Of a DNA stretch of 64,000 bases, positions 7,005 through 62,411 are shown piece after piece. Position numbers and translations under genes: made by a program. Origin of the DNA: an uncultured Bacteroidales bacterium (GTDB lineage: Bacteria; Bacteroidota; Bacteroidia; Bacteroidales; JAGOPY01). Location of the stretch: assembly GCA_964619555.1 (NCBI GenBank), contig CAZUDV010000004.1:4911-68910 (forward strand), written 5' to 3'. Position 1 is the first letter of the stretch. Each line of letters opens with the position of its first letter. The notes under the pieces are model-generated. The model was not told the DNA's origin. It saw only the letters and a program-made list of their open reading frames with translations, and ran no database searches.

Positions 7005-7598
7005 TCAGGGTTTGTTCTGATTTCGCCCTGTTTTTTCAAGGAAACAGTGCCGGCAGAGGGGCTCATAATTATCCGTCTCACCCAGCACGACGAGCCCCTG
7101 CTTATCGACTGTGCGGTGCGAATACTGGGCAAGGCCGCCGCAACTGATGCAAATGGCATGGACCTTATCCACATACTCTGCCGTGGCCAGCAATGCCGGC
7201 ATCGGCCCGAACGGCTTGCCTGTATAATCCATATCCAGTCCCGCCACGATGACCCGCGTGCCCGCATCTGCCAGCTTATTGCAAACGGTAACGATCTCGT
7301 CATCGAAGAACTGGGCCTCATCGATTCCAACAACATCATAATCATGAGAATAGAGCAGGATCTGAGAGGCTGCCTGGACAGGAGTGGATGGGACCGAGTG
7401 ATCATCATGGGAAACGACATGTTCCGTATGATACCGTGTGTCGATAGCCGGCTTGAAGATCTGAACGGTCTGGCGGGCAATCTGGGCACGGCGTAAACGG
7501 CGGATGAGCTCTTCGGTCTTACCGGAAAACATCGATCCGCAGATCACTTCGATCCAGCCTGATCTTGCTTTGCCGCTTTTTTGACGTTCCAGGAACAT
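7005..7598 (-). CDS. tdk: thymidine kinase
   Basis: P-loop [14 protein letters not shown], a DEAQFF motif, and C-terminal Zn-ribbon cysteines (CISCG ... CRHC). Confidence 0.95.
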
Positions 7599-7604
7599 GG
7601 GTTG

Positions 7605-7705
7605 GTTGTTTCTTGTTTCTAGTTTCTAGTATCTAGTTTCTGGTTTTTGGTTTCTGGTTTCTGGTTTCTGGTTTTTGGTTTCTGGTTTCTGGTTTCTGGT
7701 TTGGG
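7605..7705. repeat. tandem 7-nt word array (GGTTTCT and variants), immediately upstream of the tdk start
   Basis: ttgtttcttgtttctagtttctagtatctagtttctggtttttggtttctggtttctggtttctggtttttggtttctggtttctggtttctggtttgg has visible 7-nt periodicity. Confidence 0.85.
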
Positions 7706-33011: not shown

Positions 33012-33600
33012 GGCTAATTGAATTGTATGGTTATATTGGTCGGATGTGTATAATTTTCAGGTATTTGAAATCATATCTCGATTAACCGGGTATGGGACCA
33101 CTTCAAGTTTTTCAAAGTTACCTCAACCACAAGGCAGGAATGAGTCAGATCAACGAACGCCGGGTTTTGTTCAACGAACACAAAAATCGCTCAACCCCCG
33201 CCAACTATCCTCATGACCATAAAGGAAAATATTAAAGGAAGGACTTTTAATGTTTTGGATTATAGGCTTTAGCACCTGAAAAATACGAAAAAATAAGGGG
33301 AAAAGCAAGTAAAATTATCGGGTGTATCCACAGATACATACGCCCCAGAGTACGATAATATGCCCCGGACGTATATATATATCAGATTTGGAATCTTCGG
33401 CCATCCTGACTCAAACGGTTTCGTATATTTGGCAGATTATCCTACTATGTGTTGATTGGTGCACACGCCGAATAAATTGACCAGTCTGCGCCGATTTAAA
33501 TTGACCACCCTCCGCCGGAGTAAATTGACCACCCCTGTTTGACCCCTGTTTTCATTGGCATTAATCACCTTGATCCGTATTCCATACAAATATATGTTTT

Positions 33601-34335
33601 CTATTCTTCCGATTCAAGTGTTTCCATGGGTTCTGGTTTTTTCCTTTTTCTGAGAGATTCTCCCTGAAGTTCAATGCGGTTTGCATCGTGTACGAGCCTG
33701 TCCAGGATGGCATCTGCGACAGTGGCTTCTCCAATGATATCATACCATTGCTGGACAGGCAACTGCGAGGCAATGATGGTTGACCGCTTCCCATGGCGGT
33801 CTTCGATGATCTCCATCAGGGTGGCGCGGCTGTATGAGTCCAATGGGAGCAGGCCAAAGTCATCCAGGATCAACAAGTCGGTTTTTTCTATCCTGGCGAT
33901 CTCTTTCAGGTAGGATCCGTCGGCCTTGGCCATTTTCAGCCTGGCGAACAGTTTGCTGCTGTTGGAATACAGCACCTTGTACCCGAGGGTGCAGGCCTGG
34001 TTGCCCAGGGCCGAGGCGATGTAGCTTTTTCCGATGCCTGTGCTCCCGGTGATCATGATGTTTTCAAAACGGTCAATGTATGAGCATTCCGACAGGCGCA
34101 TGAACAGGTTCTTGTCCAGGTTCCGGTCAATATCGAAGTAGGTCTGCTCAAGGTTGGCCCGGTAACAGAACCGTGCATTGCGGAGGTCCCGCTCGATGCG
34201 GCGGTTGTTGCGGTCGTCCCATTCGGCATCGATCAAAAGGGATACCAGCTCATCGGATGTGAGAGCTGCGGACCGGCCCTCCTGGATGGTCGTACGGAAG
34301 GCGGATGCCATTGCATAGAACTTCATTTGTTTCAT
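33601..34335 (-). CDS. istB: IS21-family helper ATPase IstB
   Basis: Walker A GSTGIGKSY, Walker B LLILDDFG, and an IstB-like C-terminus AILDRLVHDANRIELQGES. Confidence 0.92.
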   Translation of the reverse strand: MKQMKFYAMASAFRTTIQEGRSAALTSDELVSLLIDAEWDDRNNRRIERDLRNARFCYRANLEQTYFDIDRNLDKNLFMRLSECSYIDRFENIMITGSTGIGKSYIASALGNQACTLGYKVLYSNSSKLFARLKMAKADGSYLKEIARIEKTDLLILDDFGLLPLDSYSRATLMEIIEDRHGKRSTIIASQLPVQQWYDIIGEATVADAILDRLVHDANRIELQGESLRKRKKPEPMETLESEE

Positions 34336-34383
34336 CTTTTCAGGGTTTGTTCATTCATTTTTCTTGGTATTTGAGATGTATTT

Positions 34384-35922
34384 TCATTGATAGTACTCTT
34401 TACCCTGTATGTTTTCATGGGTGGGGACTTCGGTGGATGGATGCTCTTCTGCAGGAAAACTCTTGTCGTAACCTTTTTCCAGAATGATGCGGATGGTGTG
34501 ATAACTGTAATCCCCGTAATCCATGGCCCGTTTGCAGGCATCGTTGAGTCGTTTGTGACCAGCCCGGGAGGCAAAGCTCAGTACTCCCTGGCAGGATTTA
34601 TAGGCCTGTTCGGGATGCTGGCGGCTATCAATGATGCCTTTGATATAGTCCCGGCAGGCCTGTCCGACCTCTTCGCCCTTTTGGATGAACTTGTCCGGAT
34701 TCCAGTCGGTCTGATAGCGGTGTTTGCTGGCCAGGTGATCTTCCACGGTGGAGTACTTATAGGGCCTTCTGTCCCGGTCATGCACAGCGATACGATCGTG
34801 GCGGTGATACACTTCCACCAGCGACTGGCTGTAGAACAGGGTCACCTTTTTGCCGATTTACTGGTAAGGCACACTGTAATAATGTTTGTCCTCGCCCAGA
34901 AAAACAAAATTGTTCTTCATCACAGTCACTACCTTCCTGTGTTTGATCTCATAGCGGCGAAGCGGCAAGGCCTGAAGTGAGGCCCTTTCCGTTTCTTCAA
35001 AGACCTGCCGGCGGCTGTAGGGACGAGATGACATCGGCCGACAGTTAAAATCATCCACAAGCTCCCGTATGGCCTGGTTGATCGTGTCAACTGAGGAGAA
35101 CACCCCGGTGCGGATCTCCTCATAGACCGCCCTGTAAATGATCTTTACGGCACCTTCCACAAGCGCTTTGTGAGTGGGTTTATAAGGCCTGGCAGGAACA
35201 ACGGCCATGGTATAATGACTGGCAAAATCACGGAAAGCATCATTGAGGACCGGCTCGTAACGATTGCTTCGGACAACGGCTAATTTTAGGTTATCCGTCA
35301 CGATGGCCAGCGGGGATCCGCCATAGTAATGCAACGCATGCTCGCAAGAGGTGATGAAGTCTTCCGTCTGCTGGCTCATCGAGGCTTCCACATAAAGCAG
35401 CTGGCTTCCTCCCAGTACCGATACAAACACCTCCAGGTCAATGATCTCTCCGGTCGTCGGATCCACCATCTGGAGCTTTTCTCCGGCATAATCCACATAC
35501 ATCTTGTCGCCTGCCTTATGCTCGATATGCATGATCGGATTACTGGCTTTGTGCCAAAGCAGGTAGTAATGCTTGAACTGCGAAAGGCCGTAGCCATCCG
35601 GATGAAGCTCCCTGTAACGGTTCCACTGCTGCTCCTTGGTTACCCCCTTGCGCTTTAAGGACCGTTCCATCTCCGGAAAAAAGGACAACAAAGACCTGTA
35701 CCGGGGATCATCATCCATCTCCTTACGAGGCACCATGTCCAGGAATAACTGTTCCAGCTTCCCGTCGCTCATCTGGTCAAGTTCGCTGTGAACCTTACCA
35801 CTGGCCAGAAACAGCCGGATATACTTCTTTATCGTGTTACGCGGCAGACCTAGCCGATTTGCGATGGCAGTCTTACTTACACCCTCGGTGTAGAGTCTGA
35901 GTAAACTTCTTACCTTGCTCAT
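34384..35922 (-). pseudogene. istA: IS21-family transposase IstA interrupted by a single in-frame TAA
   Basis: Track ORFs 34858-35943 (HTH + DDE region) and 34384-34845 are in the same frame. The read-through is ...HYYSVPYQ * IGKKVTLFYSQSLVEVYHRHDRIAVH..., so the stop at 34858-34860 sits inside the conserved IstA block. The ATG at 35922 (MSKVRSLLRLY) is the likely start. Confidence 0.8.
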
Positions 35923-36163
35923 ACTGATCAATTTGTTCGGCAAAGTTTATCGTTTTCAAATCCATACGATAAATCCATGCCTGGGTATCGGCAAGGTGAT
36001 CTTTTGCTAATTTAGGGTGGTCAATTTCGACCGGCGTGGGGTGGTCAATTTCATCCGGCGGAGCCTGAAAATTTCACCGGCGTGAGGTGGTCAATTTGCT
36101 CCGGCGTGGACTGATAAATTCATCAGCTGTGTCCAGTCAGCCAACGTGTAGCAAAATTTGCAA

Positions 36164-46349: not shown

Positions 46350-46382
46350 AGGATTTCGGGCTGTATTATTTTTTGGATGACG

Positions 46383-46437
46383 AAAATCGTACTACCACTA
46401 TAGTCGTAGTACGATTTTTTTAAAGCCAGCCGATTTC
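46383..46437 (-). terminator. 55-nt hairpin repeat, copy 2 (14-bp stem with A-run/T-run, bidirectional-terminator shape)
   Basis: aaaatcgtactac cactatagtc gtagtacgattttttt aaagccagccgatttc. It is identical to 59537-59591 and lies 25 nt downstream of the stop of 46462-47805. Confidence 0.7.
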
Positions 46438-46461
46438 CATCTCAGATAAATCGACCTTTAT

Positions 46462-47805
46462 TCATAGTTTGATTATCTTCTTCACAATGATTTGGTTTTG
46501 AAGAGATATTCGGATGAAATAGATGCCTGCGGGCAAATTACTAATATCCAACTCCAGGGTTTCATTGTTCAATTGTTCTATTGTTCTATTGTTGTTTGAT
46601 ACCAGCACCTTTCCGTAAATATCCACCAACTCTAAACTTTTCAACTCAACTTTACCCTTTGAACTTTGCACTTTGAACTTTGAGGTGGTCGGGTTAGGCC
46701 ACACCTGCACAAAATCCTTCCCCTTGTCCCCTTGTCCCCTGGTCTCCTCTACGCCACTCAGGAGGGTATACTTCAAAATGGTATTGTTGTTGCCGCAAGC
46801 ATATCCGCAATTTGGGGAAAAAAACATGATCGACCCTAGTAATTCACCGCTTTTTGGATGAGGTTGTTCTTCCCACACGACGTTCGACCAGTAATAATTG
46901 GTCTCCGGGATGTAGCCATAGTCCCAGGCATTGGAGGTATGATAGATATGGCCATCGAAGGTGGTTGCCCAAAGTTGGTTGGTATCGAGTGCATGCAGGC
47001 ACGTGATGGCGTCTTCGTCGGTGCTGTGGATTTCAGGCCAGTAGTAGTCATAATCCACAAAACCGCGGATTTCACAAAGATTTCCAATCCATCCGTGGTC
47101 TTTATCGATGAAGAAAACCGGTCCGAAGTATCCGCAATGGATTACAAATTCGGGGGTTATGGATTGCTGGCCCGGATCCCAGTAAAAGACCTGTATCCCT
47201 CCGCAAAACCAAACTGCTTCCTCCGTAGCGCTGATCCCGCTCCAGTAATTCAAATGACCGATATCGATCTGGTTAACGCCTTCGGGCGTGATCTGCCACA
47301 TGTAATAGCTTTCATCCGTTGTGACATATCCGGTGTCTGATCCTGGTGCAAATGAAATGTCAGTCACAGGACTGCCCGTTGCACCATGGTAAGCCCAGGT
47401 ATCGCCGCCATCATGGGTGACCATGATAAATCCATTGTGGTCACCAATGTATCCATTTTCGGAATCGAACATCCATATGGCATGGCAATAATCCCAGTGT
47501 GTCTGGATTTCCCAGCTCTCCCCCCCATCTTCAGTATGGAAAATGAGAAATTCCAGTTCCTCATTCTGTTGCAGGCTGGTCACCCAACCTTCGTTTTCAT
47601 TGATGAAAAACAGGTCGAGGTAACTGCCATAATAGGGTTCACCGCCGATGTAAATGGTGTCGGTCGGGGTATTTGGCATGTTGGGAAAGAGATCGGTCCA
47701 GCCGTACTGCTGCCCAAGTGCCAAGTTCAAAGGGCAAAGTGCAAAGAAAAGGCTTATGGCCAGAAGCTTGAGGCTTGTAACTGATTTTTGGCTTTTTGGG
47801 TTCAT
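46462..47805 (-). CDS. T9SS-sorted Ycf48/BNR-like beta-propeller protein
   Basis: ATG at 47805 gives MNPKSQKSVTSLKLLAISLFFALCPLNLALGQQ. Asp-box-like motifs HTEDGGESW and THDGGDTW. Shared CTD: VWPNPTTSKFKVQSSKGKVELKSLELVDIYGKVL ... NNNRTIEQLNN ... LPAGIYFIRI ... KKIIKL. Confidence 0.85.
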   Translation of the reverse strand: MNPKSQKSVTSLKLLAISLFFALCPLNLALGQQYGWTDLFPNMPNTPTDTIYIGGEPYYGSYLDLFFINENEGWVTSLQQNEELEFLIFHTEDGGESWEIQTHWDYCHAIWMFDSENGYIGDHNGFIMVTHDGGDTWAYHGATGSPVTDISFAPGSDTGYVTTDESYYMWQITPEGVNQIDIGHLNYWSGISATEEAVWFCGGIQVFYWDPGQQSITPEFVIHCGYFGPVFFIDKDHGWIGNLCEIRGFVDYDYYWPEIHSTDEDAITCLHALDTNQLWATTFDGHIYHTSNAWDYGYIPETNYYWSNVVWEEQPHPKSGELLGSIMFFSPNCGYACGNNNTILKYTLLSGVEETRGQGDKGKDFVQVWPNPTTSKFKVQSSKGKVELKSLELVDIYGKVLVSNNNRTIEQLNNETLELDISNLPAGIYFIRISLQNQIIVKKIIKL

Positions 47806-47888
47806 GGCTGATATTATTTGCTTAGACCATAGGGCATAGGGCATATTAACACTACAATCCATGCTCTTAGCCCTAAGCTCTATGCCAG
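47806..47888. repeat. intergenic inverted word arrays (CCATAGGGCATAGGGCAT ... CTTAGCCCTAAGCTCTATGCC)
   Basis: This is the spacer between two array genes. The left words and right words are approximate reverse complements. The word gggcatagggctaagagc recurs inside the signal-peptide codons at about 50721-50745. Confidence 0.55.
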
Positions 47889-50780
47889 TTATAGTTTTAT
47901 GATCTTCTTCCCAATCGTTTGATTTTGAAGAGATATTCGGATGAAATAGATGCCGGATGGTAAATTGCTTATGTCGATTTCAAGTGCTGAATTGTTCAAT
48001 TGTTCAATTGTTCGATTGTTATTTGATATCAGCACCTTTCCATATATATCTATCAACTCTAAACTTTTCAACTCAACTTTACTCTTTGAACTTTGCACTT
48101 TGAACTCCCCTCTGGTGGGGTTGGGATACAGCACGACCTCCGGCATCTCCCGCTCGCTCACTGCCGTGGTGATATCCACCGTCACCACCCAGTCCTTCAC
48201 CGTCTGTCCGTTTTCCGAGGTGACCGTGTAGGTGAATGGGCTGGAGAAGTTTTGCATGGTCCCGCCGGGGGGATCGATGCTGGCAGCGGCGGATATAAAC
48301 ACGTCCGGGATGAGCTGGGTCAGGTCCGTGCCTTCAGCCACGATGGCATGGACAGTCTGCGCGGGGATATTGATTTCCGCCGGTTGCACCTGTTGGTCCA
48401 GTACAAAGTCAAGGATGTCGGCGCCACCGGCCGGGAAACCCTCGAGGAGGCCGTAGCGGTAGAGCGAGCCGTTGTTTCCAATCGCCCAGGCATGGTGCCC
48501 GTCGACGGCGAAAATATCCGTCAGCCAGGCATCGGCGAGGTGGTCGGCATGGAAATGCACCGTGTCCGCATTGGCGCTTGAAGACATCAGGATATCCCCT
48601 CCGTTAGTTACTGCCCAGACAGAGTCCATGTCCAGGGTAAAAACGCCCTGGATACTTTGTAAGGTATCTTCATACAAGTGCTGGAACAGCCCATTTCTCA
48701 GTCGGAGAAGCTCCCCTCCATAACTCAGCCAGGCCTGTTCGGGGGCGTTGAATTGCACATCCCCGAAGCATGGGAAATACTGCGCCCCGCCGTAAAAGGT
48801 CCAGGTTCCGCTGTCAAAGATCATTTTCCGGCCAAAGCAGCCGGTGGCCCAACCGTAGTCACCGGAGCCAAAGGAGATGGCGTCCCAGTCGGTGTAGGTG
48901 CCGGTATTCTGGGGAGCCAGGCCTGTTCCCGTTATTTGGGCCAGCCAGCCTTCAGCGCATCCGCACCAGCCCAAATTATCATCAGGTGAAAATCCGATGC
49001 TAAGGATCTGGGAAGGCACCACACCAAAGAAGTTCCAGTTTTGACCGCCGTCAGTGGTTTTACAGAGCAATCCGCTTTCACCGCCGGCATAGCCGGTTTC
49101 GGAAGACAACATGTAAATGGCATGGTTTTCCCCCAATGTGGTCTGCACATCCCAGGTTTCTCCGCCATCCGTAGTGTGGTAGATTTCCTTGTAAAAGCAG
49201 CTGTTGGTGATCCATCCCTCGTTGCCGATAAACCAGAGGCCGGAGAGGCAGCCGCCGGCAGCACCACCGACCGGGAACAGGTTCTCGCTGATATCCACCC
49301 AACCGTAGGCACGGGTATAGGTGGCATCGAAGTTACAGGTAGAGTTGCTGTAGTTCAGGCTGACGTTGCAACTCCTGGGATCGAAATGAGCGTATTTATG
49401 AGTTGGAGTTACAGAGTAATTCCCGTTCGGCAGATGGTTGAATTCATACTCCCCGTTGAGGTTGGTGCGGATGAAGCCGCTGATGGGGCCGCTCAGGTGA
49501 ACCTCTGCCCTGGGATAGGGATTGCCGTCAAGGGTGATGGTTCCATTGATGGAAGAAGTGGGCAGCAGGGTGTTGTCGGTCCGCACGGGCCAGACATGCC
49601 AGTCGGCCGTTTTCAGATACTGCAGCCTGTTGCCGCCGCCCATCATCCCGTCGGAGAACCAGACCATCCAGGCCTGGTCCGTTTCGTCAGCACGGGTGGT
49701 GGAGGTCCAGTATGCCTGGTCAAAGTTGAAACCAGTAACATTGACAAAAGGATATTTTTCCGGCATCGCAGGATTGCTCCGGCTGATGTCCACCAGGCTG
49801 GTCATCTCGTTGCGGTTGGGCATGCGCCAGTCGTTGTGGCCCAGGTAGTTCTCCGAGTTCAACAGGGCAATATAATCCAGCGCATGCTGCCAGTTAATGG
49901 CGCCGTCGACCCACTGGTTGGTGTCGAAATCCGGGTCGCGGGTGAGCATCAGGTTGGCGTCCTTTGTCCACATCAGCCCGGTGAGGCGGTCGGTGACGGT
50001 ACCGTTGTTGTTGTCGACGAGCCGAGGCGTGGGCCAGGCTGTCCCTTCCGCCAGGAACCCATCATCGCCCGGATAAAAGGTGTATTGCTGGCCTGTTTTT
50101 GGGTTTTGAAGCGGCCCCGGATTTCCGCTGTCACGAACGGGAAGAAGGTAGTACTTCCAATTGGTGCTTCCGGTCATGTCAGGATCTTTTGCAAAATCCT
50201 CCGTTTCCCCGGCAGGATTGGTGATGTTGGAATGGGCGTAGTGCTCCCGGAGCATGATAGTGATAGCCAGACTGCGCATTTGCTCTGAGGTGGTCGAACT
50301 CCAGTATACGTCTTTCAGGTTGATAAAAGGATGATCCGGTGGAAGTGCAATTTCGGGGTACCGCAGGTTAACGAGCGATTTCATTTCCACCATATTCGGC
50401 ATGCGCCAATCGTTGTGCCCGAGGTAATTGTCATTATTAAGCAGTACCACGTAATCCAGGGCAGTCTTCCAGTCGATGTCGCCGTCGCCCGGGGTGCGGT
50501 CCTGGTCAAAATCCGGGTTTCGGGTGGCGATCAGGTTGCCATCTTTCACCCACATCAGGCCGGTGAAGGCATCCGTGATGGAGCCGTCGCCGTTGTCTGT
50601 GAATCGGTTGGTTGGGATGGGAACGCCCTTTTGCAGGTCGCCGTCATCACCGGGGTAATAGCTGGTGGTTTGGCCGGTGGCGGGGAGCTGGATTGTGCCC
50701 TGCTGGCCCAGGACATAAGGCGTAGGGCATAGGGCTAAGAGCAGCATTGCGGCTTGCAGCTTGAGGCTTTTGTGTTTCAT
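47889..50780 (-). CDS. T9SS-sorted fusion protein: 2x DUF1566 (Lcl C-terminal-like) + CarboxypepD_reg-like + BNR/Ycf48-like propeller + Ig-like + CTD
   Basis: ATG at 50780 gives MKHKSLKLQAAMLLLALCPTPYVLGQQ. DUF1566 signatures occur twice: TGLMWVKDGN ... HNDWRMPNMVEMKSL and TGLMWTKDAN ... HNDWRMPNRNEMTSL. Also INGTITLDGNPYPRAEVHL ... NGEYEFNHLPNGNYSV, Asp-box-like motifs TTDGGETW and TTDGGQNW, and the shared CTD. Confidence 0.85.
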   Translation of the reverse strand: MKHKSLKLQAAMLLLALCPTPYVLGQQGTIQLPATGQTTSYYPGDDGDLQKGVPIPTNRFTDNGDGSITDAFTGLMWVKDGNLIATRNPDFDQDRTPGDGDIDWKTALDYVVLLNNDNYLGHNDWRMPNMVEMKSLVNLRYPEIALPPDHPFINLKDVYWSSTTSEQMRSLAITIMLREHYAHSNITNPAGETEDFAKDPDMTGSTNWKYYLLPVRDSGNPGPLQNPKTGQQYTFYPGDDGFLAEGTAWPTPRLVDNNNGTVTDRLTGLMWTKDANLMLTRDPDFDTNQWVDGAINWQHALDYIALLNSENYLGHNDWRMPNRNEMTSLVDISRSNPAMPEKYPFVNVTGFNFDQAYWTSTTRADETDQAWMVWFSDGMMGGGNRLQYLKTADWHVWPVRTDNTLLPTSSINGTITLDGNPYPRAEVHLSGPISGFIRTNLNGEYEFNHLPNGNYSVTPTHKYAHFDPRSCNVSLNYSNSTCNFDATYTRAYGWVDISENLFPVGGAAGGCLSGLWFIGNEGWITNSCFYKEIYHTTDGGETWDVQTTLGENHAIYMLSSETGYAGGESGLLCKTTDGGQNWNFFGVVPSQILSIGFSPDDNLGWCGCAEGWLAQITGTGLAPQNTGTYTDWDAISFGSGDYGWATGCFGRKMIFDSGTWTFYGGAQYFPCFGDVQFNAPEQAWLSYGGELLRLRNGLFQHLYEDTLQSIQGVFTLDMDSVWAVTNGGDILMSSSANADTVHFHADHLADAWLTDIFAVDGHHAWAIGNNGSLYRYGLLEGFPAGGADILDFVLDQQVQPAEINIPAQTVHAIVAEGTDLTQLIPDVFISAAASIDPPGGTMQNFSSPFTYTVTSENGQTVKDWVVTVDITTAVSEREMPEVVLYPNPTRGEFKVQSSKSKVELKSLELIDIYGKVLISNNNRTIEQLNNSALEIDISNLPSGIYFIRISLQNQTIGKKIIKL

Positions 50781-50796
50781 TATTGAGTTTTTCTTT

Positions 50797-50895
50797 ACCA
50801 CAATAGGCACAATAGGGCACATGGGAGGCACAATAGAATTTTAAATTTAGAATTATTCTATGTGTTTTCTATGTGTTCTATGTGACTATGTGGTT
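50797..50895. repeat. relative of the ~100-nt palindromic element (arms kept, core replaced by AT-rich aattttaaatttagaattatt)
   Basis: Left arm: accacaataggcacaatagggcacatgggaggcacaatag. Right arm: ctatgtgttttctatgtgttctatgtgactatgtggtt. Confidence 0.65.
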
Positions 50896-50900
50896 AATAT

Positions 50901-52214
50901 TCATAACTTAATGATTTTCTTTACGATCGTCTGATTTTCAAAGTTTATTCGGATGAAATAGATGCCGGAATGTAAATTGCTTATGTCGATTTCAAGTGCT
51001 GAATTGTTCAATTGTTCAATTGTTCGATTGTTATTTGATATCAGCACCTTTCCATAAATATCTATCAACTCCAAACTTTGAAACTCAACTTTGCCCTTTA
51101 CCCTTTGGACTTTGAACTCCCCGGTGGTGGGGTTCGGCCATAATTTCACGCTCTCATTCTCCCATTCTCCCGGTCCCCCGGTCTCCTCTTCCCCGCTCAC
51201 CGCCCCGTATTTCAGCAGGATCTTTTCTCCTCCGTAAATAAATCCATTGTTTGGAGAGGTGAAACGGACGCCATTGAGGAACCCGTTGGTCAGGGTATGC
51301 TCCAGCCTGATCCAGTCCGTGCCGCCGTTGCCGGTGTGGAATATCTGCGCAACCGAGCCCACGGCCCAGCCATTGTTCTCATCATTGAAAAAGACCCCCG
51401 TCAGCGCACCTTCAAGGACGGTATTCACCGAGGTGGTGTACCAGTCAATCCCTACTTCTGTTTTTAGGAACCGGTCACCGACGCACCAGCCAAGGTCATC
51501 CGTCAGAAAGAAAAGCCAGCCCTTTCCCGCATAAGGGTAACTTGCCTCCACATGCCATTCCCCATCCATGAAATAGATGATCATTTGATAATCAAGTATG
51601 GCGTAGCCTCTTTCGACGGAAGGGAAATCGATACAGTAAACATTCCCGGCCAGCCCCAGGTCGAACGGGAAGACGCCTTCCGGCGTGATTTGCGCCATTT
51701 TCCCATTCTTGCCGCCTGCATACCCGTTTTGTGCCGGTCGGGGCGGAAATCCCAGGTCGTAAAGATAAGCACCCAGGTGCCCGTGGTAATTCCAGGTCTG
51801 GCAACCGTCTTCAGTCCGGTAAATCATACCGTTGGTGGCACCGAGATAGCCGGTGTTTTCATCGACCATGTAAATATCCGCCGAAGCCAGGGGAGCATCA
51901 TGAGCGGTCCAGGTCTGCCCGCCGTCAATTGTTTCCAGCACTGCTGACTGCTCTCCGTCGAAAGGATGATTGGTACAGATCCAGCCGTGGTTGTCGTCGA
52001 TGAACGTTAACCCGCTGATGTTGGCGATGATTGTATCGGCTCCGTTGTTGATGATGACAGTGTCGTTGTTGAAATCGGGCAGGTTGGCGGTAATGTTGGT
52101 CCAGCCGTACTGCTGCGCAAATAGTGAACAGTGAAGGGTGAGCAGTGAAGCGAGGATTAGCAATGAAGTGTGAAGGGTGAAGTGGGAGGCGGGATGCTGA
52201 ATTATTGGTTTCAT
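50901..52214 (-). CDS. T9SS-sorted Ycf48/BNR-like beta-propeller protein
   Basis: Signal region MKPIIQHPASHFTLHTSLLILASLLTLHCSLFAQQ. Motifs ETIDGGQTW, RTEDGCQTW and HTGNGGTDW, plus the shared CTD. Confidence 0.85.
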   Translation of the reverse strand: MKPIIQHPASHFTLHTSLLILASLLTLHCSLFAQQYGWTNITANLPDFNNDTVIINNGADTIIANISGLTFIDDNHGWICTNHPFDGEQSAVLETIDGGQTWTAHDAPLASADIYMVDENTGYLGATNGMIYRTEDGCQTWNYHGHLGAYLYDLGFPPRPAQNGYAGGKNGKMAQITPEGVFPFDLGLAGNVYCIDFPSVERGYAILDYQMIIYFMDGEWHVEASYPYAGKGWLFFLTDDLGWCVGDRFLKTEVGIDWYTTSVNTVLEGALTGVFFNDENNGWAVGSVAQIFHTGNGGTDWIRLEHTLTNGFLNGVRFTSPNNGFIYGGEKILLKYGAVSGEEETGGPGEWENESVKLWPNPTTGEFKVQRVKGKVEFQSLELIDIYGKVLISNNNRTIEQLNNSALEIDISNLHSGIYFIRINFENQTIVKKIIKL

Positions 52215-52232
52215 GGCTGAGTTATTTTTTCA

Positions 52233-52331
52233 ACACATAGACACATAGGGCACATAGGAAGCACAATAGAGTTCTATCCCGCCCATGGTGGGACAAGTTG
52301 TGTAATCTTTGTGTTCTATTGTGCCTATTTG
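52233..52331. repeat. ~100-nt palindromic intergenic element, orientation 1
   Basis: acacatagacacatagggcacataggaagcacaatagagttctatcccgcccatggtgggacaagttgtgtaatctttgtgttctattgtgcctatttg, with a central 7-bp GC hairpin tcccgcc cat ggtggga. Confidence 0.8.
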
Positions 52332-52339
52332 TTTAATTG

Positions 52340-54796
52340 TCATTGTTTAATTATCTTTTTCACGATCGTTTGGTCTTCAATAGATATCCGGATAAAATAG
52401 ATACCTGAGGGCAAATTACTAATATCCAACTGCAGGATTTCATTGTTCAATTGTTCTATTGTTCTTTTGTTATAGATTTCCAGCACTCTTCCATTTATAT
52501 CCACCAACTCAATAACTCCAGATCCAAGATTGTAAATTGTAAACTGTAAATTGTAAATCCCTCTTCCCGGATTGGGAAACACCTCCACACTTGTAAGCCC
52601 GGGTCCCCCTGAAACATTGGGATCTGGTGCCTGTATCCCCGTATATCCCTCTTTGATGGTAACCCCAACTGATTCTCTCCCATCGGTTTCACAAGTGAAA
52701 ACACCGTACCATTCCTGGCTTACCGGAACGTTCCAGGTCAGGTATTGCGATGTTTCCCCTTCAAAAGCCGATGAATCCAAAATAGTATCGTTAAAATACC
52801 ATTGATAGGATGACCAGCCGTCAGGAGCTTTAAAAACCACCGTGCTTTCGATGGGTTTACTCCCGATCAGTTCTATAAGCAGATTGCCGCCGGTCTCAAC
52901 CTGCAGGAGTCTATTCATCCATTCTCCATCATTGACGATATTCCCGGTGACATACAACCTTAACATCCCGGATCCAAAATCCCGAATCAGTCCGAAATTC
53001 GTCACGTTACCATATATGGGAAGATCAAAGTATTTAGAACCTCCTCCAAAGGTATTGGATTGCATCGTGTCATTGATGATGACCGGGCAAAGGATTGTAT
53101 TGAGATCATCAATACTAACGGTTCCCTCCAGGGTAAGCTGTGTCGTGGATGATACGTTATTCAAACAGCCTCCCTTCAGCTTTGCTTCATCCAGTGTGCC
53201 GTTCCATAAAGTACCATCCATTTTCAGTTCTTTATTTCCCATCACCAGGCTGTTTCCGTTCAAGTTGAAATTTCCGGTAAAGGCCAGGTCGGAACCGGCA
53301 AAATTCGTACTCATGATTTCCGAATCTATGAATTCACCACCGAATGTTTTTCCTTCCAATAATGTGATCGTTTGATGCCCCGTTCCGTTCAGGATTGTTT
53401 CAGCAGGTTCCCACATTCCATGGTTATTAATGTCACCAGTGATTTTCAACCTGAGGCGATCATCAATGTCGTTGATTATCCATCCGTTATTGATTAAATC
53501 GCCTTCAACCTGAAGATCGTAATATTTAGTCCCACCCCCAAATGAATTGGCCTGAAGGGTGTCATCAACAGTCACCTTGTTGCGGAATACATTGTTATCG
53601 TCGACCGTCACTTTACCATTGATAATAAGGTTATCGATGCTTTCTATATTCTGCAGTATTGCCCTGTTTAATTTGATATTATTGATATATCCGTCAAAGA
53701 GCCGACCGGTCAGGTACAGCGTGTGTCCCAGGCCTTCAAGCGCAGATCCTTTGAGCTCGAAGTTTCCCAGGCATTGAATATCAGAATTCATGCAGATTTT
53801 GCTTTCAGGATCCAGGTCGGTGAAATTGCTCTCGAAAGGGTTTCCCTCCATATATTGGTCATTGTTCCCGATGAAGGCCACGAATCCACAGGTCCAGCTA
53901 CCGTTATTGATAATGTTCCCTGTGATAAGAATATGCAGATAATCGCCCTCTTCTTCATGATCCCTTACCCAGCCGTTATTGGTTAGATTTCCGTTAATCT
54001 TTAGTTTCATCATGCCTGTGCCTCCGCCAAAATAATTTGCCTGCAGGGTATCGGTGACAGTAATATTGCCTGCGAAGAAAAGGGTGTCTGTTGAATGATG
54101 GCTGACCCGGAAAGTCCCTGCAATTTCGAAATCTCCCGCGATAGTTCCCCCGTAGATGATCGTACCAATTGCTTTGATCCTGTGATTTCCCATATCCAGG
54201 GTGGCGCCCCCAAGGTTAAAATCTCCCAGGTAACTTTCACCGCTATGATAATATACTCCGTCGTATGTGAAATCCGTTTCCGAAACCAGGGAAGTGCCTG
54301 ACATGGCTGTGATCCATCCTCCGAATATGTTTCCGGGGCCAAGCACCAGCTTTTGAATACCTGATCCGGTGAAATGGGTAGCATGCGGACGATAGTTGCT
54401 AAAATTTGAAAGGTCCCCGGATATCGAGATATCGACATATTCGTTGCCATTGGCCACGTTTCCGTAATTGATCAGGTGTCCTGAAACGAAAAGCTGAAAG
54501 GTGGCCAGGCCTCCGCCGTAATCCTGGGCGGTCAGCATGGCGCCGGGATCAATGGTAATCTGTGCACACCAACTGTGATAGATGTTATACCAATCAACAT
54601 GACCGATGGTTACCGTGGCTAATTGGGAGATCACCACAGTATCCCCTTCTCCAGGGATCAAACCCTGCATCCAGGTGCTCGTGGAATCCCAGCAGCCGCC
54701 ACTTGAGGTTGAATGAATAATGATCGCATTGGTCCGGGTGATAAAGACATTTACCAGCATAAAGACCAGACTGATTTTGATAATGATTTTTTTCAT
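52340..54796 (-). CDS. T9SS-sorted repetitive (beta-helix-like) protein with about 4 long internal repeats
   Basis: ATG at 54796 gives MKKIIIKISLVFMLVNVFITRTNA. Recurrent units: TDTLQANYFGGGTGMMKLKINGNLTNNGWV, DDTLQANSFGGGTKYYDLQVEGDLINNGWI, NDTMQSNTFGGGSKYFDLPIYGNVTNFGLI; and GDFNLGGATLDMGNHRIKA, GNFELKGSALEGLGHTLYL, GNFNLNGNSLVMGNKELKM. CTD variant: VFPNPGRGIYNLQFTIYNL ... LPSGIYFIRI ... KKIIKQ. Confidence 0.8.
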   Translation of the reverse strand: MKKIIIKISLVFMLVNVFITRTNAIIIHSTSSGGCWDSTSTWMQGLIPGEGDTVVISQLATVTIGHVDWYNIYHSWCAQITIDPGAMLTAQDYGGGLATFQLFVSGHLINYGNVANGNEYVDISISGDLSNFSNYRPHATHFTGSGIQKLVLGPGNIFGGWITAMSGTSLVSETDFTYDGVYYHSGESYLGDFNLGGATLDMGNHRIKAIGTIIYGGTIAGDFEIAGTFRVSHHSTDTLFFAGNITVTDTLQANYFGGGTGMMKLKINGNLTNNGWVRDHEEEGDYLHILITGNIINNGSWTCGFVAFIGNNDQYMEGNPFESNFTDLDPESKICMNSDIQCLGNFELKGSALEGLGHTLYLTGRLFDGYINNIKLNRAILQNIESIDNLIINGKVTVDDNNVFRNKVTVDDTLQANSFGGGTKYYDLQVEGDLINNGWIINDIDDRLRLKITGDINNHGMWEPAETILNGTGHQTITLLEGKTFGGEFIDSEIMSTNFAGSDLAFTGNFNLNGNSLVMGNKELKMDGTLWNGTLDEAKLKGGCLNNVSSTTQLTLEGTVSIDDLNTILCPVIINDTMQSNTFGGGSKYFDLPIYGNVTNFGLIRDFGSGMLRLYVTGNIVNDGEWMNRLLQVETGGNLLIELIGSKPIESTVVFKAPDGWSSYQWYFNDTILDSSAFEGETSQYLTWNVPVSQEWYGVFTCETDGRESVGVTIKEGYTGIQAPDPNVSGGPGLTSVEVFPNPGRGIYNLQFTIYNLGSGVIELVDINGRVLEIYNKRTIEQLNNEILQLDISNLPSGIYFIRISIEDQTIVKKIIKQ

Positions 54797-54811
54797 GGCT
54801 GATATTGTTTT

Positions 54812-54916
54812 CACCACATTAGGCACATAAATCACATAGATTACACAACTTGTCCCGCCATGGGCGGGATAGAAATCTATTGTGCCTCCTATGTGCCCTA
54901 TTGTGTCTATGTGGTT
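54812..54916. repeat. ~100-nt palindromic intergenic element, orientation 2 (reverse complement of 52233-52331)
   Basis: The reverse complement reads ccacatagacacaatagggcacataggaggcacaatagatttctatcccgcccatggcgggacaagttgtgtaatctatgtgatttatgtgcctaatgtggtg. The central hairpin is tcccgcc atg ggcggga at 54853-54869. Confidence 0.8.
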
Positions 54917-54921
54917 AATAT

Positions 54922-55995
54922 TCATAACTTAATGATCTTCTTCACGATCGTCTGATTTTCAAAGTTTATTCGGATGAAATAGATGCCGGATGGTAAATTG
55001 CTGATGTCGATTTCAAGTGCTGAATTGTTCAATTGTTCAATTGTTCTATTGTTATTGATCTTCATGACATTTCCATAAAGATCAATCAACTCTGAACTTT
55101 GACACTCAACTCTGCCCTTTGCCCTTTGAACTTTGAACTCCCCTGTCGTTGGGTTCGGCCACACGTAAAGTCCGCCATCAATGGATGCCTTACGGATACC
55201 AACCGGCACACCAGACGGGATCAATTCGGGATTTCCTTCCGAATCGGCATGGTTTTGCCAGACGGAAAGGTCCCTGAAATCATCCGCCCCGTCCCCTTCA
55301 TTCCCCAGGTCCTCAAACTCATCAAACCGGTAATATGCTACCAGGCCGCTATCGGTTGTAGTGTAATATTCGGCAGCGAGAGGATTGTTCATGATGTGTG
55401 CCACATGAACTTCTTTCAGCGCCCGGTTCCAGATGCTCAATTCATCCATGGGGCCCTCTATCAGTTGCGACGCGCTCCTGCGGGCTATGATCAGGTCGCT
55501 GGTATTGCTGACACTGGGCCAGGATCCATAGAAATAGGAGTGGATAAAATCCACTTCCACACCATCGACAAACACCACGATACCATTTTCATCCTTGTCG
55601 GCAACAATGACGATGTGATGCCAGTTACCGTCGATAAACTCGTTTGTTGTATTTCCGCTCCTCTCCGACAGGCCCGAGTTTTCTATGTAGTTAACCCGGA
55701 TCCTTTTGCCCGGTACCGGATTGTGCGGGTCGTCCATCGCAAAGCCATAGGAATACTGCGTATACGGATCGGAGGTCAGCCTTTTCATAACGAATGGGGC
55801 GACCTGGTTTTTGTCGGCGGCCTTAATCCATAATGCAACCGACCAGCTACCATCCGCAGGATTTAAGCTTTCGTGATGGGGGACAAATGCGTAATCATCG
55901 ATTCCGTCGAGGTTCACACATTTTCCAAATCCCTGGGCAGACAGGCTTCCTATAAAGGAAAGGCAAAGAGTGAACAGAGTGATTGATTTTTTCAT
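54922..55995 (-). CDS. T9SS-sorted LamG (concanavalin A-like lectin) domain protein
   Basis: Signal MKKSITLFTLCLSFIGSLSAQ. LamG_3-like: VNLDGIDDYAFVPHHESLNPADGSWSVALWIKA ... DELSIWNRAL. Has the shared CTD. Confidence 0.85.
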   Translation of the reverse strand: MKKSITLFTLCLSFIGSLSAQGFGKCVNLDGIDDYAFVPHHESLNPADGSWSVALWIKAADKNQVAPFVMKRLTSDPYTQYSYGFAMDDPHNPVPGKRIRVNYIENSGLSERSGNTTNEFIDGNWHHIVIVADKDENGIVVFVDGVEVDFIHSYFYGSWPSVSNTSDLIIARRSASQLIEGPMDELSIWNRALKEVHVAHIMNNPLAAEYYTTTDSGLVAYYRFDEFEDLGNEGDGADDFRDLSVWQNHADSEGNPELIPSGVPVGIRKASIDGGLYVWPNPTTGEFKVQRAKGRVECQSSELIDLYGNVMKINNNRTIEQLNNSALEIDISNLPSGIYFIRINFENQTIVKKIIKL

Positions 55996-59471: not shown

Positions 59472-59535
59472 ACGCCGAATAAATAAAAACTGTTGACGAT
59501 GAGGCAATAAAGATAGAAAAAAGACGGAGATAAAT

Positions 59536-59591
59536 AAAAATCGTACTACCACTATAGTCGTAGTACGATTTTTTTAAAGCCAGCCGATTTC
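59536..59591 (-). terminator. 55-nt hairpin repeat, copy 3
   Basis: aaaaatcgtactac cactatagtc gtagtacgattttttt aaagccagccgatttc. It lies 25 nt downstream of the stop of 59616-62411 and upstream of the regulator start. Confidence 0.7.
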
Positions 59592-59615
59592 TATCAATGA
59601 TAACTCTGTCTTTAT

Positions 59616-62411
59616 TTATAATTTGATGATTTTCTTCACGATCGTTTGATTTACGAGCGATATTCGGATGAAATAGATACCAGGCGGCAGGGAGCTGATG
59701 TCGAAATCAAGAGCACGCTTGTTCAATTGTTCAATTGTTCTATTGTTATTGGGTATCAGCACGTTTCCATTAATATCCACCAACTCTAAACTTTGAAATT
59801 CAATCTTGCCCTTTGAACTTTGAACTTTGAACTTACCGGTGGTTGGATTAGGCACAATATCCACATCACCTGCGATCCATGATTCCATGCTTTTATCCTC
59901 CTCCAAACCCGTGGTGATGTCCCAGACAGCTGTTGCCATACCACGGCCATGAGTTGCTGCCAGAACAGTGAAATCACTTTGCCTGATTTGAAGCATATCT
60001 ACCCTGACATTTGCCAGACCTTCAATATCCTGGACCCAAACCGTGTTGGTTTCATCCAGGTTTGAAGTGGTCCAGATTCCCAGCTCGGTAGCCAGCATGG
60101 CATGCTGTGTGCTGGTGGGATGGTAAAGGGCCCACCGGACCGGCATATCGGGCAGGTTGGCTTCCTTGTTTTCCCAGGTAGTGCCACCGTCGTAAGTCTG
60201 CCAGACCGATTCGACACCATAATTTGAAAAAACTGCCAGTAAAGTATCGTCCGATCCTCCAATGGCCACACATGAAATAGCCCCTTCCGGGAAATCGTCG
60301 CCGGTGATCTCGGTGACCTGCGGCGTGGCCTGGGCATTCTGCACCCTGAACAGCCTGCCGGATAGAGAACCGGCAAAGAGGGTGGTGGTTCCGTCAGGCG
60401 AATGGGGACTGCATTCGACGGCGGAATAATAAACACTGAGGCCTGTATTCAGGTTGATGAAATTCCCGGTGATGTTGCTGGGGATGCCGCTGATCCGGAG
60501 GATCCGGTTGGCCAGCTGTCCGCCGAATTCACAGGCATTGGCATAAAGGATATTATTCGCGTTATCGTAATCGGCAGGAGATACGAATGTGCCGCTCGAC
60601 CAGTCGCTCATGGAAGCATACCAGTTACCATTGTTCCATAGGGTATACTGGTTATAATATACCGAAGTGATCATGTATTGCGACTGGTCCTGGTCGATGA
60701 AACAACCCGAACCGTCGCCCCCGTCGATCATCTGGTTAATCGTCAGGGCCTGCCCGGTGTAATAAAGTGTCCCGTTATCCTGCAGACCGCCCACGCACCT
60801 GGCATTTCCGGCCGCAGGATGCAAGGCACAGGTATAGAACTGGAGGGTGCCGTATCCCAGATTCTTTTCCTGGAAATCCGGGCTGGACGATCCGGCATTA
60901 TCGGTATAAAATACCCCACCGTCGGAAGTAATGAGCAATTCATCGGATGAACCGGGTTTATATGCAATATCATGGATATCAGCATGCACATATTCATCTC
61001 CTCCTCCATAATACATCAGGGCCCATTCGGAAACCTGGTTCCAGCTTAGGCCGCCGTTGACAGATTTGTAAACGTCCAGGCCACCTATATACAGGGCATC
61101 CGGATCATTGGGATCAACTCCCACTGTTAGGGCATGCCATCCGATAGTAGCCCAGAAGTAATTGCCGCCGGACGGGATATTTCGGGCGTTCCAGGATGCC
61201 CCGGCATCTGAAGTCCGTGCAATGTGCCGGCCCTGGGTATAAATGAATCCGTTCTCGCTGTTCACATAACCCGCATCGAACAGGGCATATGCCACATCCG
61301 GATCAGAAGGTGCGCTGCCGATCATCACCCGGTTCGGAATATTGTATTGCGACTGACCCTGGATGATATCGATATAATCATCGTAAATAGTCCAGGTGCC
61401 GATCAATCCCTGGTCGGAATATAGGATGGTGGCACCGCCTTCACCGTCGAGATTGGCCATGGAACCAACCAGTATCCTGTTTCCGGCAGTGATTTCGATA
61501 TCTGCCACGGTAAACGGTTTGTTTGTCCCGGGAATCAGAGGGAGTACCTGAATCCAGGTGCCGCCGCCGTCAGTGGAACGATATAGCCCATCATTCGGTG
61601 TACTTTGCTGAGTGCCATGGTATGTGCCGGACGCCACTCCGGCATAGACTACGCTGTTGCCGTTTTCAACCCTTACTTCGACATCCGTAATATATTTGAA
61701 ATTCAGGGTAGATGACAGCTGTTGCCAGGTCAGGCCACCGTCGACTGATTTGAAGATCCCCGCCCCTATCCCGCTGGATTCGCGGTAGATGACCCGGGAG
61801 GTGAACGCTTCGCCGGTTCCCACATAAAAGACCTGGGGATCGACGGGATCGAAAGTAATGTCACTGATGGCTAAAGAAGGCCACAGGTCGTCAACCGGTT
61901 GCCAGGGGGAAAGCTGGCTGGAAATATTGTTGTTGTACCACAACCCTCCCGTCACTGCCCCGGCCCAGACTTTATAACCGCCGGTACTGTTGGGATCCCA
62001 CATGATGCACCGGGTCCTTCCTCCCATATTGGACGGTATGATCTCCCATTGCAGCGGATTCCCTGTTTTCAAGGCAGGATCCTTTTCTTCCGCCTTTAAT
62101 GAATTGTAAGCAGAAACAAGCCGTTCGACAGGCACCCGCTTTTCCTTCGGATCCATAGTTTGCAGAAAATCCTGGAATGCCGCCATCTGGGGCTCGTCGA
62201 ATGACTTACCGGGTTTTGAGTCTTGAGTTTTGGGTTCTGAGTTATGAGTTCTGGGTTGTGTATTGCCATCTCCCATTTCTTTTCCTGTTTCCAAAAGGTA
62301 TTTTTCATATTCAGACCGGTCTTGCTGTTTGTCTCTCAGGATAAGAAAACTGGCGAGAAGGGCAAGGGCAGCCATCATGAAGACTGCGAGGGGCAGATGC
62401 CTGGATTTCAT
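59616..62411 (-). CDS. T9SS-sorted BNR/Asp-box beta-propeller protein (sortilin-VPS10 / GH74-like)
   Basis: Anchor/signal MKSRHLPLAVFMMAALALLASFLIL. Asp-box repeats KSVDGGLTW, RSTDGGGTW, RTSDAGASW, KSVNGGLSW and TYDGGTTW. Has the shared CTD (IVPNPTTGKFKVQSSKGKIEFQSLELVDINGNVL ... NNNRTIEQLN ... LPPGIYFIRI ... KKIIKL). Confidence 0.85.
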   Translation of the reverse strand: MKSRHLPLAVFMMAALALLASFLILRDKQQDRSEYEKYLLETGKEMGDGNTQPRTHNSEPKTQDSKPGKSFDEPQMAAFQDFLQTMDPKEKRVPVERLVSAYNSLKAEEKDPALKTGNPLQWEIIPSNMGGRTRCIMWDPNSTGGYKVWAGAVTGGLWYNNNISSQLSPWQPVDDLWPSLAISDITFDPVDPQVFYVGTGEAFTSRVIYRESSGIGAGIFKSVDGGLTWQQLSSTLNFKYITDVEVRVENGNSVVYAGVASGTYHGTQQSTPNDGLYRSTDGGGTWIQVLPLIPGTNKPFTVADIEITAGNRILVGSMANLDGEGGATILYSDQGLIGTWTIYDDYIDIIQGQSQYNIPNRVMIGSAPSDPDVAYALFDAGYVNSENGFIYTQGRHIARTSDAGASWNARNIPSGGNYFWATIGWHALTVGVDPNDPDALYIGGLDVYKSVNGGLSWNQVSEWALMYYGGGDEYVHADIHDIAYKPGSSDELLITSDGGVFYTDNAGSSSPDFQEKNLGYGTLQFYTCALHPAAGNARCVGGLQDNGTLYYTGQALTINQMIDGGDGSGCFIDQDQSQYMITSVYYNQYTLWNNGNWYASMSDWSSGTFVSPADYDNANNILYANACEFGGQLANRILRISGIPSNITGNFINLNTGLSVYYSAVECSPHSPDGTTTLFAGSLSGRLFRVQNAQATPQVTEITGDDFPEGAISCVAIGGSDDTLLAVFSNYGVESVWQTYDGGTTWENKEANLPDMPVRWALYHPTSTQHAMLATELGIWTTSNLDETNTVWVQDIEGLANVRVDMLQIRQSDFTVLAATHGRGMATAVWDITTGLEEDKSMESWIAGDVDIVPNPTTGKFKVQSSKGKIEFQSLELVDINGNVLIPNNNRTIEQLNKRALDFDISSLPPGIYFIRISLVNQTIVKKIIKL

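Follow-up and report, generated by a model that had tools for sequence, protein, structure and literature searches.

Two adjacent intergenic spacers in a 64,000-nt stretch of DNA from an uncultured Bacteroidales bacterium (GenBank assembly GCA_964619555.1, contig CAZUDV010000004.1, forward-strand positions 4,911 to 68,910; hereafter the window) contain the same palindromic element in opposite orientations. We designate these copies A and B. Together with a third element (C) and, more loosely, a fourth (D), they are probably copies of a dispersed, non-coding repeat of the foldback type found in Bacteroidota chromosomes, resembling MITEs (miniature inverted-repeat transposable elements) as well as repetitive extragenic palindromic (REP) sequences. 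As far as the papers searched show, this repeat family appears undescribed. The flip between A and B is a fixed difference in the population sampled, with no phase switch.

All four elements are found in one tandem array of five minus-strand genes, each ending in a C-terminal sorting domain (Por_Secre_tail) of the type IX secretion system (T9SS), where B, A, C and D fill the four junctions (Table 1). The initial annotation, made from the letters of the window, had reported one element upstream of two adjacent paralogous genes in opposite orientations; the hairpin-less copy C and the related palindrome D in the next two junctions extend that description. The A and B spacers are both 125 nt long (52215-52339 and 54797-54921), with words and central hairpins (tcccgcc-cat-ggtggga at 52277-52293 and tcccgcc-atg-ggcggga at 54853-54869) exactly where they had been placed. 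The genes are paralogous in their ~85-aa sorting domains (55-57% identity), while their bodies are unrelated. Element A has four CACA(A)TAG words in its left arm, a GC-hairpin module within the innermost word of its right arm, and three CTA(T)TGTG-type words. The module of A reads 5′ to 3′ on the plus strand, antisense to the genes, and has one G-T stem pair; that of B reads on the minus strand, sense to the genes. C has four plus four words around an A/T-rich centre and no GC-hairpin module. The D word (CATAGGG) is related to that of A and B, and the leader ATCAGCC-ATG is common to the A, B and D junctions (4 matches vs 0.78 expected). SusC/SusD, GH97 and T9SS genes are found in the window, which is closest to Lentimicrobium-like Bacteroidales.

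Table 1. Features of the window (positions in the 64,000-nt stretch).
Feature	Position	Strand	Basis and remarks
Five-gene tandem array, each gene ending in a T9SS C-terminal sorting domain	46462..55995	-	Pfam, open reading frames
Genes of the array	54922-55995, 52340-54796, 50901-52214, 47889-50780, 46462-47805	-	
Element A	52229..52335	+	Alignment, repeat finder, profile
Element B (A inverted)	54809..54920	-	Alignment, repeat finder, profile
Element C (A orientation)	50790..50900	+	Repeat finder, alignment, profile, word arrays
Element D, shorter palindromic spacer with CATAGGG / CCCTATG words	47806..47888	.	
Hairpin unit of A, CTAT-[CCCGCCCATGGTGGG-ACAAGT]-TGTG	52274..52302	+	35.7 bits, E 7e-5
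Hairpin unit of B, CTAT-[CCCGCCCATGGCGGG-ACAAGT]-TGTG	54844..54872	-	42.6 bits, E 3e-6
260-nt direct repeat: outer element end plus 3′ end of sorting-domain coding sequence	50881..51140	.	Repeat finder; 90% identity to 54902-55161, 65% to 52320-52579
IS21-family element	~33440-36130		IstB 33601-34335, IstA-like 34858-35943

The inverted relationship of A and B was recovered by several methods. A repeat finder paired 52245-52319 with 54827-54901 as arms of 75 nt, ungapped and 92% complementary. In global alignments of the spacers, A on the plus strand and B on the minus strand scored 150 (97/113 identical, 3 internal single-base indels), against a score of 85 with many gaps when both were read on the plus strand. 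Likewise, a profile of the copies gave B 102.5 bits on the minus strand vs 34.8 on the plus, and A 100.6 on the plus vs 35.3 on the minus. The bases between the words read A, GG, GAAG, AGTT, TAAT, TT and C in A, and A, GG, GAGG, ATTT, TAAT, AT and C in the reverse complement of B. These bases agree in the inverted register alone, so the flip takes in the whole palindrome with its arms and not its centre only. The flanks are unturned: the 2-3 nt beside the stop codon and the 17-19-nt leader (ggctga...) before the ATG keep their orientation at both junctions, as had been noted for the spacer edges by the start codons. Such a whole-element difference would be expected if the element had been inserted as a unit, or inverted as a unit between its own terminal inverted words. 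It is extremely improbable that the resemblance reflects chance low complexity, or an assembly artefact at a palindrome. The arms do consist of short reiterated words, and palindromes can confuse assemblers; however, the ungapped match includes the non-repetitive centre, a two-word pattern gave 3 matches vs 0.34 expected, nhmmer E-values range from 1e-25 to 1e-31, and a Joint Genome Institute (JGI) assembly of another sample has the same structure.

Foldback copies of the family have two inverted arms, each with 2-5 reiterated 7-8-nt words (CACA(A)TAG ... CTA(T)TGTG). These words are separated by 1-4 nt and have an 8-11 bp period that is mirrored between the two arms, and the spacer bases between them are non-complementary. 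The copies are 75-147 nt long (below 300 bp), have no coding capacity and carry MITE-type inverted ends (TTnACCACATAG ... CTATGTGGTn'AA). Their termini, TTnAC-CACATAG ... CTATGTG-GTn'AA, are complementary and A/T-rich, and the variable bases covary (GAAC/GTTC, CAC/GTG, TAC/GTA, AAG/CTT). Among 48 word arrays in ~770 kb of fetched DNA, CACATAG words precede CTATGTG words in 44; the hairpin module is present in 36 arrays and absent from 12. Near the hairpin, word order is strict, with CACATAG words 40-110 nt upstream and CTATGTG words up to the hairpin and 0-3 words past it. Some family copies lack the hairpin and some lack one arm. Soil copies of the Chitinophagaceae-like kind regularly have AAACTGAG-N-CACTACC after the right terminus GTTCAAATTTTC, a conserved extension beyond the palindrome (3′ of the unit in loci L006, L020, L024, L029, L030, L035, L036, L060, L069, L101 and L104-L106).

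The hairpin module is 20-27 nt long, has the form CCCG-variable loop-CGGG-ACAAGT, and always sits inside the word CTAT^TGTG, which in both A and B is the innermost one. Its junctions with the word read CTAT/CCCG..CGGGACAAGT/TGTG, and removal of the module leaves the intact word CTATTGTG. The GC stem has 5-6 bp and the loop 3-6 nt. Four stem pairs (CCCG/CGGG) are fixed, three of which were set by the search pattern, whereas the fourth was left free and is 93% conserved. Pair 5 is C-G, A-T or T-A and pair 6 is variable too; at both pairs the partners covary, and a covariation score of 0.130 vs 0.055 in shuffles (0/500 shuffles as high) shows the hairpin to be real. The foot of the hairpin is (T)CTAT in 84/84 distinct units with flanks, the REP tag GT[AG]G is absent, and a conserved 10-nt tail (ACAAGTTGTG) follows at the 3′ side. 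From Bacteroidales to Chitinophagales, the 22 bases of the flanks and foot do not vary.

The family is dispersed. A left-arm pattern, scanned across one genome per species, matched metagenome-assembled genomes (MAGs) of a Lentimicrobium sp. and of a Bacteroidales bacterium, in both cases between sorting-domain genes, besides two chance matches and one half copy. At the Lentimicrobium locus (L003), three successive sorting-domain-gene junctions hold one copy each, all in the A orientation, with a hairpin that has changed compensatorily (cccgaaggatcggg). A metagenome scan with the hairpin core TCTATCCC-N6-12-GGGACAAGTTGTG (flanks fixed, top free) found it in at least 120 contigs among the matches listed, from soils, rhizospheres, sludge and mats. 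For a neighbouring protein at one soil locus, the best named relatives belong to Chitinophagaceae and Ferruginibacter. Since the window is closest to Lentimicrobium-like Bacteroidales and this neighbour is Chitinophagaceae-like, the family spans at least two orders. By a crude call of open reading frames (ORFs), 136/149 units lie outside ORFs, in tandem (<u< 33, >u> 24), divergent (<u> 18) and convergent (>u< 15) gene contexts. On metagenome contigs, they occur as singles, tandem runs (L009, L048, L099) and inverted pairs (L028, L041, L069). No neighbour protein family recurs among the unit-bearing loci, where hybrid sensor kinases, glycoside hydrolases, peptidases and a P-type ATPase are found. 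A general link to T9SS sorting domains was considered and rejected: it is confined to Lentimicrobium-like loci (8/149 units), as judged with a narrow sorting-domain profile built from the window. No copy was found in PLSDB plasmids or IMG/VR viral contigs, and an Rfam search of 46.3-57.5 kb at permissive thresholds gave no match other than chance microRNA-type hits (E about 1-3). A full-text literature search (core sequences, words, REP/MITE in Bacteroidetes) found no description of the repeat; nearest were Quentin et al. (2018) and a preprint on MITE mining, in which unnamed Bacteroidota MITEs are listed. Automated catalogues of Bacteroidota MITEs probably contain members of the family without names.

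Other palindromic junction spacers occur between sorting-domain genes of relatives (L133 338-456 and 2939-3041; L004 480-560). These are built of different words (CACGAAT, ATCCGTG/CACGGAT), some with a small GC hairpin of their own (cccgatagctatcgggg), and the word-foldback design is therefore present in several sequence families.

Related assemblies inform on the history of the A and B sites. Exact-protein matches for the 437-aa and 357-aa genes were not on record, and a 370-aa neighbour led to the JGI contig (L126). Over 18 kb, this contig shares 99.16% identity with the window, without a break in collinearity; its copy of A shows no change, that of B one substitution and that of C two. Because the contig is collinear through A, B and C, the orientations of A and B are fixed at this depth of divergence, as far as a comparison between assemblies goes. 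A Logan assembly shows no differences over the adjacent 4.5 kb, but breaks before B. Two Logan contigs of 4538 nt (L127 and L128, independent short-read assemblies of the same species) stop inside the sorting-domain coding sequence before B; it is the repeated domain ends plus palindromes that break assemblies there. In a more distant relative (L129-L132), the gene pair bracketing A is kept (74.5% and 62.6% aa identity), yet the genes overlap in ATGA with no spacer at all. The B-equivalent position (L129) has no element either, and a half element oriented like B is found downstream of the second gene.

No other copies are as close to A or B as these two are to one another, which places their gain in this lineage: two separate gains in opposite orientations, or a single one with a later inversion in place. 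In the latter case, A and B would derive from one duplicated or gene-converted junction module, and recombination, or a template switch during replication, would have turned B between the inverted, perfectly complementary words at its two ends (ACCACATAG / CTATGTGGT), as a rare historical accident and not a programme. We regard this course of events as possible, if somewhat doubtful. It would account for the exactly equal spacer lengths, for flanks that are unchanged right up to the terminal words, and for the leader shared by the junctions; moreover, adjacent coding ends are 65-90% identical, so that junctions do exchange sequence. However, the leader also accompanies D, a different element, and thus belongs to the genes and not to the repeat. 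The sites in L129 are empty at both A and B, which fits separate acquisitions, and orientation relative to genes is arbitrary across the family. These three points favour separate insertion.

The initial annotation had also offered a segment able to invert between its own arms, as the invertible promoters of Bacteroidales do. A phase-variable segment of this kind, flipped by a site-specific recombinase, is suggested by a centre flanked by inverted arms and by two copies in opposite orientations. The idea fails on each feature tested and is very unlikely: orientations are identical in two independent assemblies 0.8% apart, and a Pfam scan of the 34 kb around the elements (29.9-63.9 kb, ORFs of 200 aa or longer) found no site-specific recombinase, the unrelated IS21-family element aside. 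What is inverted is the palindrome in its entirety, with no unique cargo inside it, and the family is dispersed beside unrelated genes. Bacteroides promoters carry the Bacteroidetes -7 motif TAnnTTTG. Neither this motif nor TTTG occurs in the spacers, and the -7 motif is missing from all four of them and from either orientation of the gene-sense spacers.

No sigma-70-like promoter stands out in the spacers, and a scan found no intrinsic terminator at A, B or C; the GC hairpin is followed by ACAAGTTGTG and not by a U tract. As neither promoter nor terminator was found in the spacers, the five genes are probably co-transcribed. The elements would thus lie inside one probable transcript of five T9SS cargo genes, placing an imperfect hairpin of 35-40 bp between cistrons in either orientation. 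On both strands, the predicted folds of all spacers are much more stable than those of shuffled controls (z -3.6 to -7.4), so that long imperfect hairpins are predicted between cistrons in the mRNA whichever way an element points. For the same reason, effects on the genes, if there are any (RNase III processing, mRNA stability, cistron uncoupling), would be orientation-independent. Across 119 elements, folding energy favours the module strand in 62 (p=0.72), and these equal energies argue against a strand-specific RNA. A strand-specific structure (G-U vs A-C pairing) was considered for C, where the difference is striking (-46 vs -28 kcal/mol), and was dropped because it is absent family-wide.

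Could the element then be a selected cis-acting structure instead of selfish DNA, either an intercistronic RNA hairpin (for RNase III cleavage or as an exonuclease block) or a site array for a DNA-binding protein? The element is symmetrical, and such a structure would work in both orientations, which is how the initial annotation had framed its RNA or protein-binding alternative. The equal folding of both strands, in the window and in the family, agrees with that idea, although nothing we found requires such a role. In its favour, elements in the window and in Lentimicrobium start 2-3 nt past the stop codon and end 17-19 nt ahead of the next ATG, the word period is mirrored in the arms, the termini covary, the core is conserved across orders, and the window has an RNase III gene. 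Against this, units are found in divergent, convergent and both tandem contexts beside unrelated genes, an orthologous junction does without the element, the hairpin or one arm is missing from some copies, and the between-word bases are non-complementary. On balance we consider selection for such a structure unlikely; RNase III processing, 3′ protection or cistron uncoupling are plausible as side effects, by analogy with REP, enterobacterial repetitive intergenic consensus (ERIC) and Correia repeats.

A dispersed mobile repeat, the reading we prefer and the one for which the initial annotation had suggested a MITE/REP-like palindrome, accounts for a non-coding intergenic family in any orientation, for an empty orthologous junction, and for a hairpin module that behaves as a unit gained and lost separately from the foldback. 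The last point was addressed by collapsing each module to its word and aligning the elements on the same strand. Many pairs of elements are 85-93% identical and differ solely in the module, which may occupy the outermost word of the left arm, of the right arm, of both arms or of neither (for example the tandem pair of L119, the pair of L068, and the groups L020/L035/L069 and L006/L106/L033). Filled and empty forms are seamless, without duplication or scar. In two species (L039 and L116), an orthologous downstream gene (83-89% aa identity) is preceded by homologous, co-oriented foldbacks with the module on opposite arms. Tentatively, then, the GC-hairpin module may itself be an ultra-small, site-specific mobile unit that moves without a scar at CTAT^TGTG, using heptamer-word foldbacks as landing pads, though we would put this at well short of probable. 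If the module is truly mobile, one conserved trans-acting enzyme would be implied throughout the phylum, such as a single-strand nuclease of the HUH type, similar to REP-associated tyrosine transposases (RAYTs), or another enzyme.

The mobility we infer for the family has to be weighed against several observations. No transposase or other enzyme tied to the family was found in the unit-bearing loci; in particular, no HUH/Y1 (RAYT) gene lies beside any unit in ~770 kb of such loci, although with only ~1 expected this absence is uninformative. No direct repeat that would make a clean target-site duplication is visible around the palindrome. The ATGA...ATGA around filled junctions was considered as one and set aside as a hint only, as coding explains it too (..A TGA stop, ATG AAA start). 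Loss, and not the ancestral state, could account for the relative's empty site. The 64-kb window has only 2 full hairpin units, with all four elements inside one gene array, and transposition and local spread, through recombination between sorting-domain ends that are nearly identical, are equally likely in this genome. Finally, the 22 core bases identical across Bacteroidales- and Chitinophagaceae-like contigs hint at a conserved recognition site of a host factor or enzyme; purely selfish REP sequences are usually less conserved than this.

The search for enzymes and parent elements also returned candidates that were rejected. The sole Y1 gene found (L098; 171 aa, IS200-like, subclass-1.2-like, motif YIMNQETHH) was dismissed as the transposase of the family, being flanked by a different hairpin, GGTGCGCTGCACC. 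At L098 4200-5200, repeats of the GGTGCGCTGCACC hairpin with TTCTGTGCGTATTAC after them lie on either side of this gene, in what looks like a REPtron-like unit of another repeat family; the contig also has one CTATCCCG unit, 1.2 kb away. The IS21-family element of the window has word-reiterated ends as well, with three or four GGTGGTCAATTT words per end. Derivation of the family from it was rejected because these words (GGTGGTCAATTT) are unrelated to the CACATAG words. Apart from this element, no candidate parent insertion sequence with the same ends was seen.

A few further observations concern the gene array and its repeats. Public gene calls (P0001; also L126) lengthen the 818-aa protein of 52340-54796 to 861 aa via element B (52340-54925, minus strand). 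Since the 43 extra residues are translated palindrome, this annotated N-terminus is almost certainly spurious. A near-identical block of ~65 nt lies 3′ of two different sorting-domain genes (46375-46440 and 59535-59600). It contains an A/T-flanked hairpin (aaaatcgtactac-cactatagtc-gtagtacgattttttt), resembles a shared bidirectional terminator, and is further evidence that paralogues copy gene 3′ ends plus downstream sequence. Imperfect tandem arrays with a period of 7 or 8 nt occur inside the coding sequence of sorting domains and signal peptides, in one group at 46564-46593, 47979-48020, 50991-51032, 52442-52471, 55012-55053 and 59719-59747, and in others at 46657-46683, 48084-48106 and 59811-59834, at 52529-52558, and at 52123-52182. 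Their words are (TTCAATTG)3-5, (CTTTGAA)3-4, (ATTGTAA)4 and GTGAAGG, and the arrays are denser across the T9SS array than elsewhere in the window. Periods that are not divisible by three are unusual inside ORFs. Within gene 46462-47805, the octamer CCTTGTCC/CCCTTGTC is reiterated at 46719-46748 and includes CTTGTCCC, which equals the foot plus tail of the hairpin module on the opposite strand (ACTTGTCCCG). Outside the array, ~13 head-to-tail GTTTCTG heptamers (CAGAAAC on the gene strand) lie at 7598-7705, directly upstream of the start codon of a minus-strand gene.

REP, ERIC and Correia repeats are well studied in Proteobacteria, and their mode of movement is still debated. To our knowledge, Bacteroidota are nearly unexplored for small palindromic repeats. 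The family described here offers natural pairs of filled and empty sites both for the foldback as a whole and for the hairpin module nested in it, whose junctions are scar-free; together with a core conserved across orders, these pairs are a concrete substrate for an enzyme search and for tests of mechanism. On the practical side, the elements mislead gene callers and cause short-read assemblies to break at arrays of T9SS genes. They are also, along with the near-identical sorting-domain ends, recombination substrates that could shuffle genes for secreted proteins.

Among known systems, the REP sequences of Proteobacteria, with their higher-order forms (BIMEs, bacterial interspersed mosaic elements, and REPINs) and their RAYT (TnpA-REP) transposases, share with the family a short GC-rich hairpin with a conserved foot tag, an extragenic, chromosomal location in either orientation, an occurrence as singles, tandem runs and inverted pairs, and a stem whose top covaries over a fixed foot. 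They differ in that the foot of the family is CTAT and not GT[AG]G, that a 10-nt tail (ACAAGTTGTG) is present, and that the hairpin sits in a reiterated heptamer word of a larger foldback. In addition, 22 core bases are kept across orders whereas REPs are usually species-specific, and no RAYT was found near any unit of the family in the ~770 kb of loci. In Bacteroidetes, 'atypical' REP-like structures flank TnpA-REP genes of subclass 2.6, with copies scattered over the genome (Quentin et al. 2018, PMC6006769). These belong to the same phylum, lack GT[AG]G as well, and many have a GCTAG/GCTGG-type foot before a GC hairpin, but the tabulated sequences contain neither CTATCCC nor GGGACAAG nor the words.

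ERIC sequences, also called intergenic repeat units (IRUs), of enterobacteria and the Correia elements (also NEMIS, Neisseria miniature insertion sequences) of Neisseria are likewise imperfect palindromes of ~100-150 nt in transcribed intergenic regions, in both orientations, with size variants from internal insertions and long RNA hairpins expected between cistrons. The family, in contrast, shows no TA duplication or integration host factor (IHF) site, has word-built arms and a nested hairpin module, and belongs to another phylum. The 'peel and paste' elements of the IS200/IS605 type and their miniature palindrome-associated transposable elements (PATEs) resemble the module in their seamless filled and empty forms 3′ of a fixed tetranucleotide (here CTAT), without duplication, and in an inserted piece made of a hairpin and a short 3′ tail. 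Unlike these, the module is a single hairpin of 20-27 nt and does not have two different ends or a linked Y1 transposase. The invertible promoters of Bacteroidales also have inverted repeats around a short segment upstream of surface-related genes, whereas A and B have no promoter motif, nearby recombinase or orientation polymorphism, and the segment is the palindrome itself. Lastly, intergenic heptamer direct repeats (TAACTGA) are known from Beggiatoaceae, Cyanobacteria and some Bacteroidetes (MacGregor 2015, PMC4679880). They share the reiteration of 7-nt words near start codons, and the (CAGAAAC)~13 array of the window is of the same kind; yet TAACTGA words run perfectly head to tail in one orientation, whereas the words of the family are spaced by 1-4 nt and arranged in two inverted arms.

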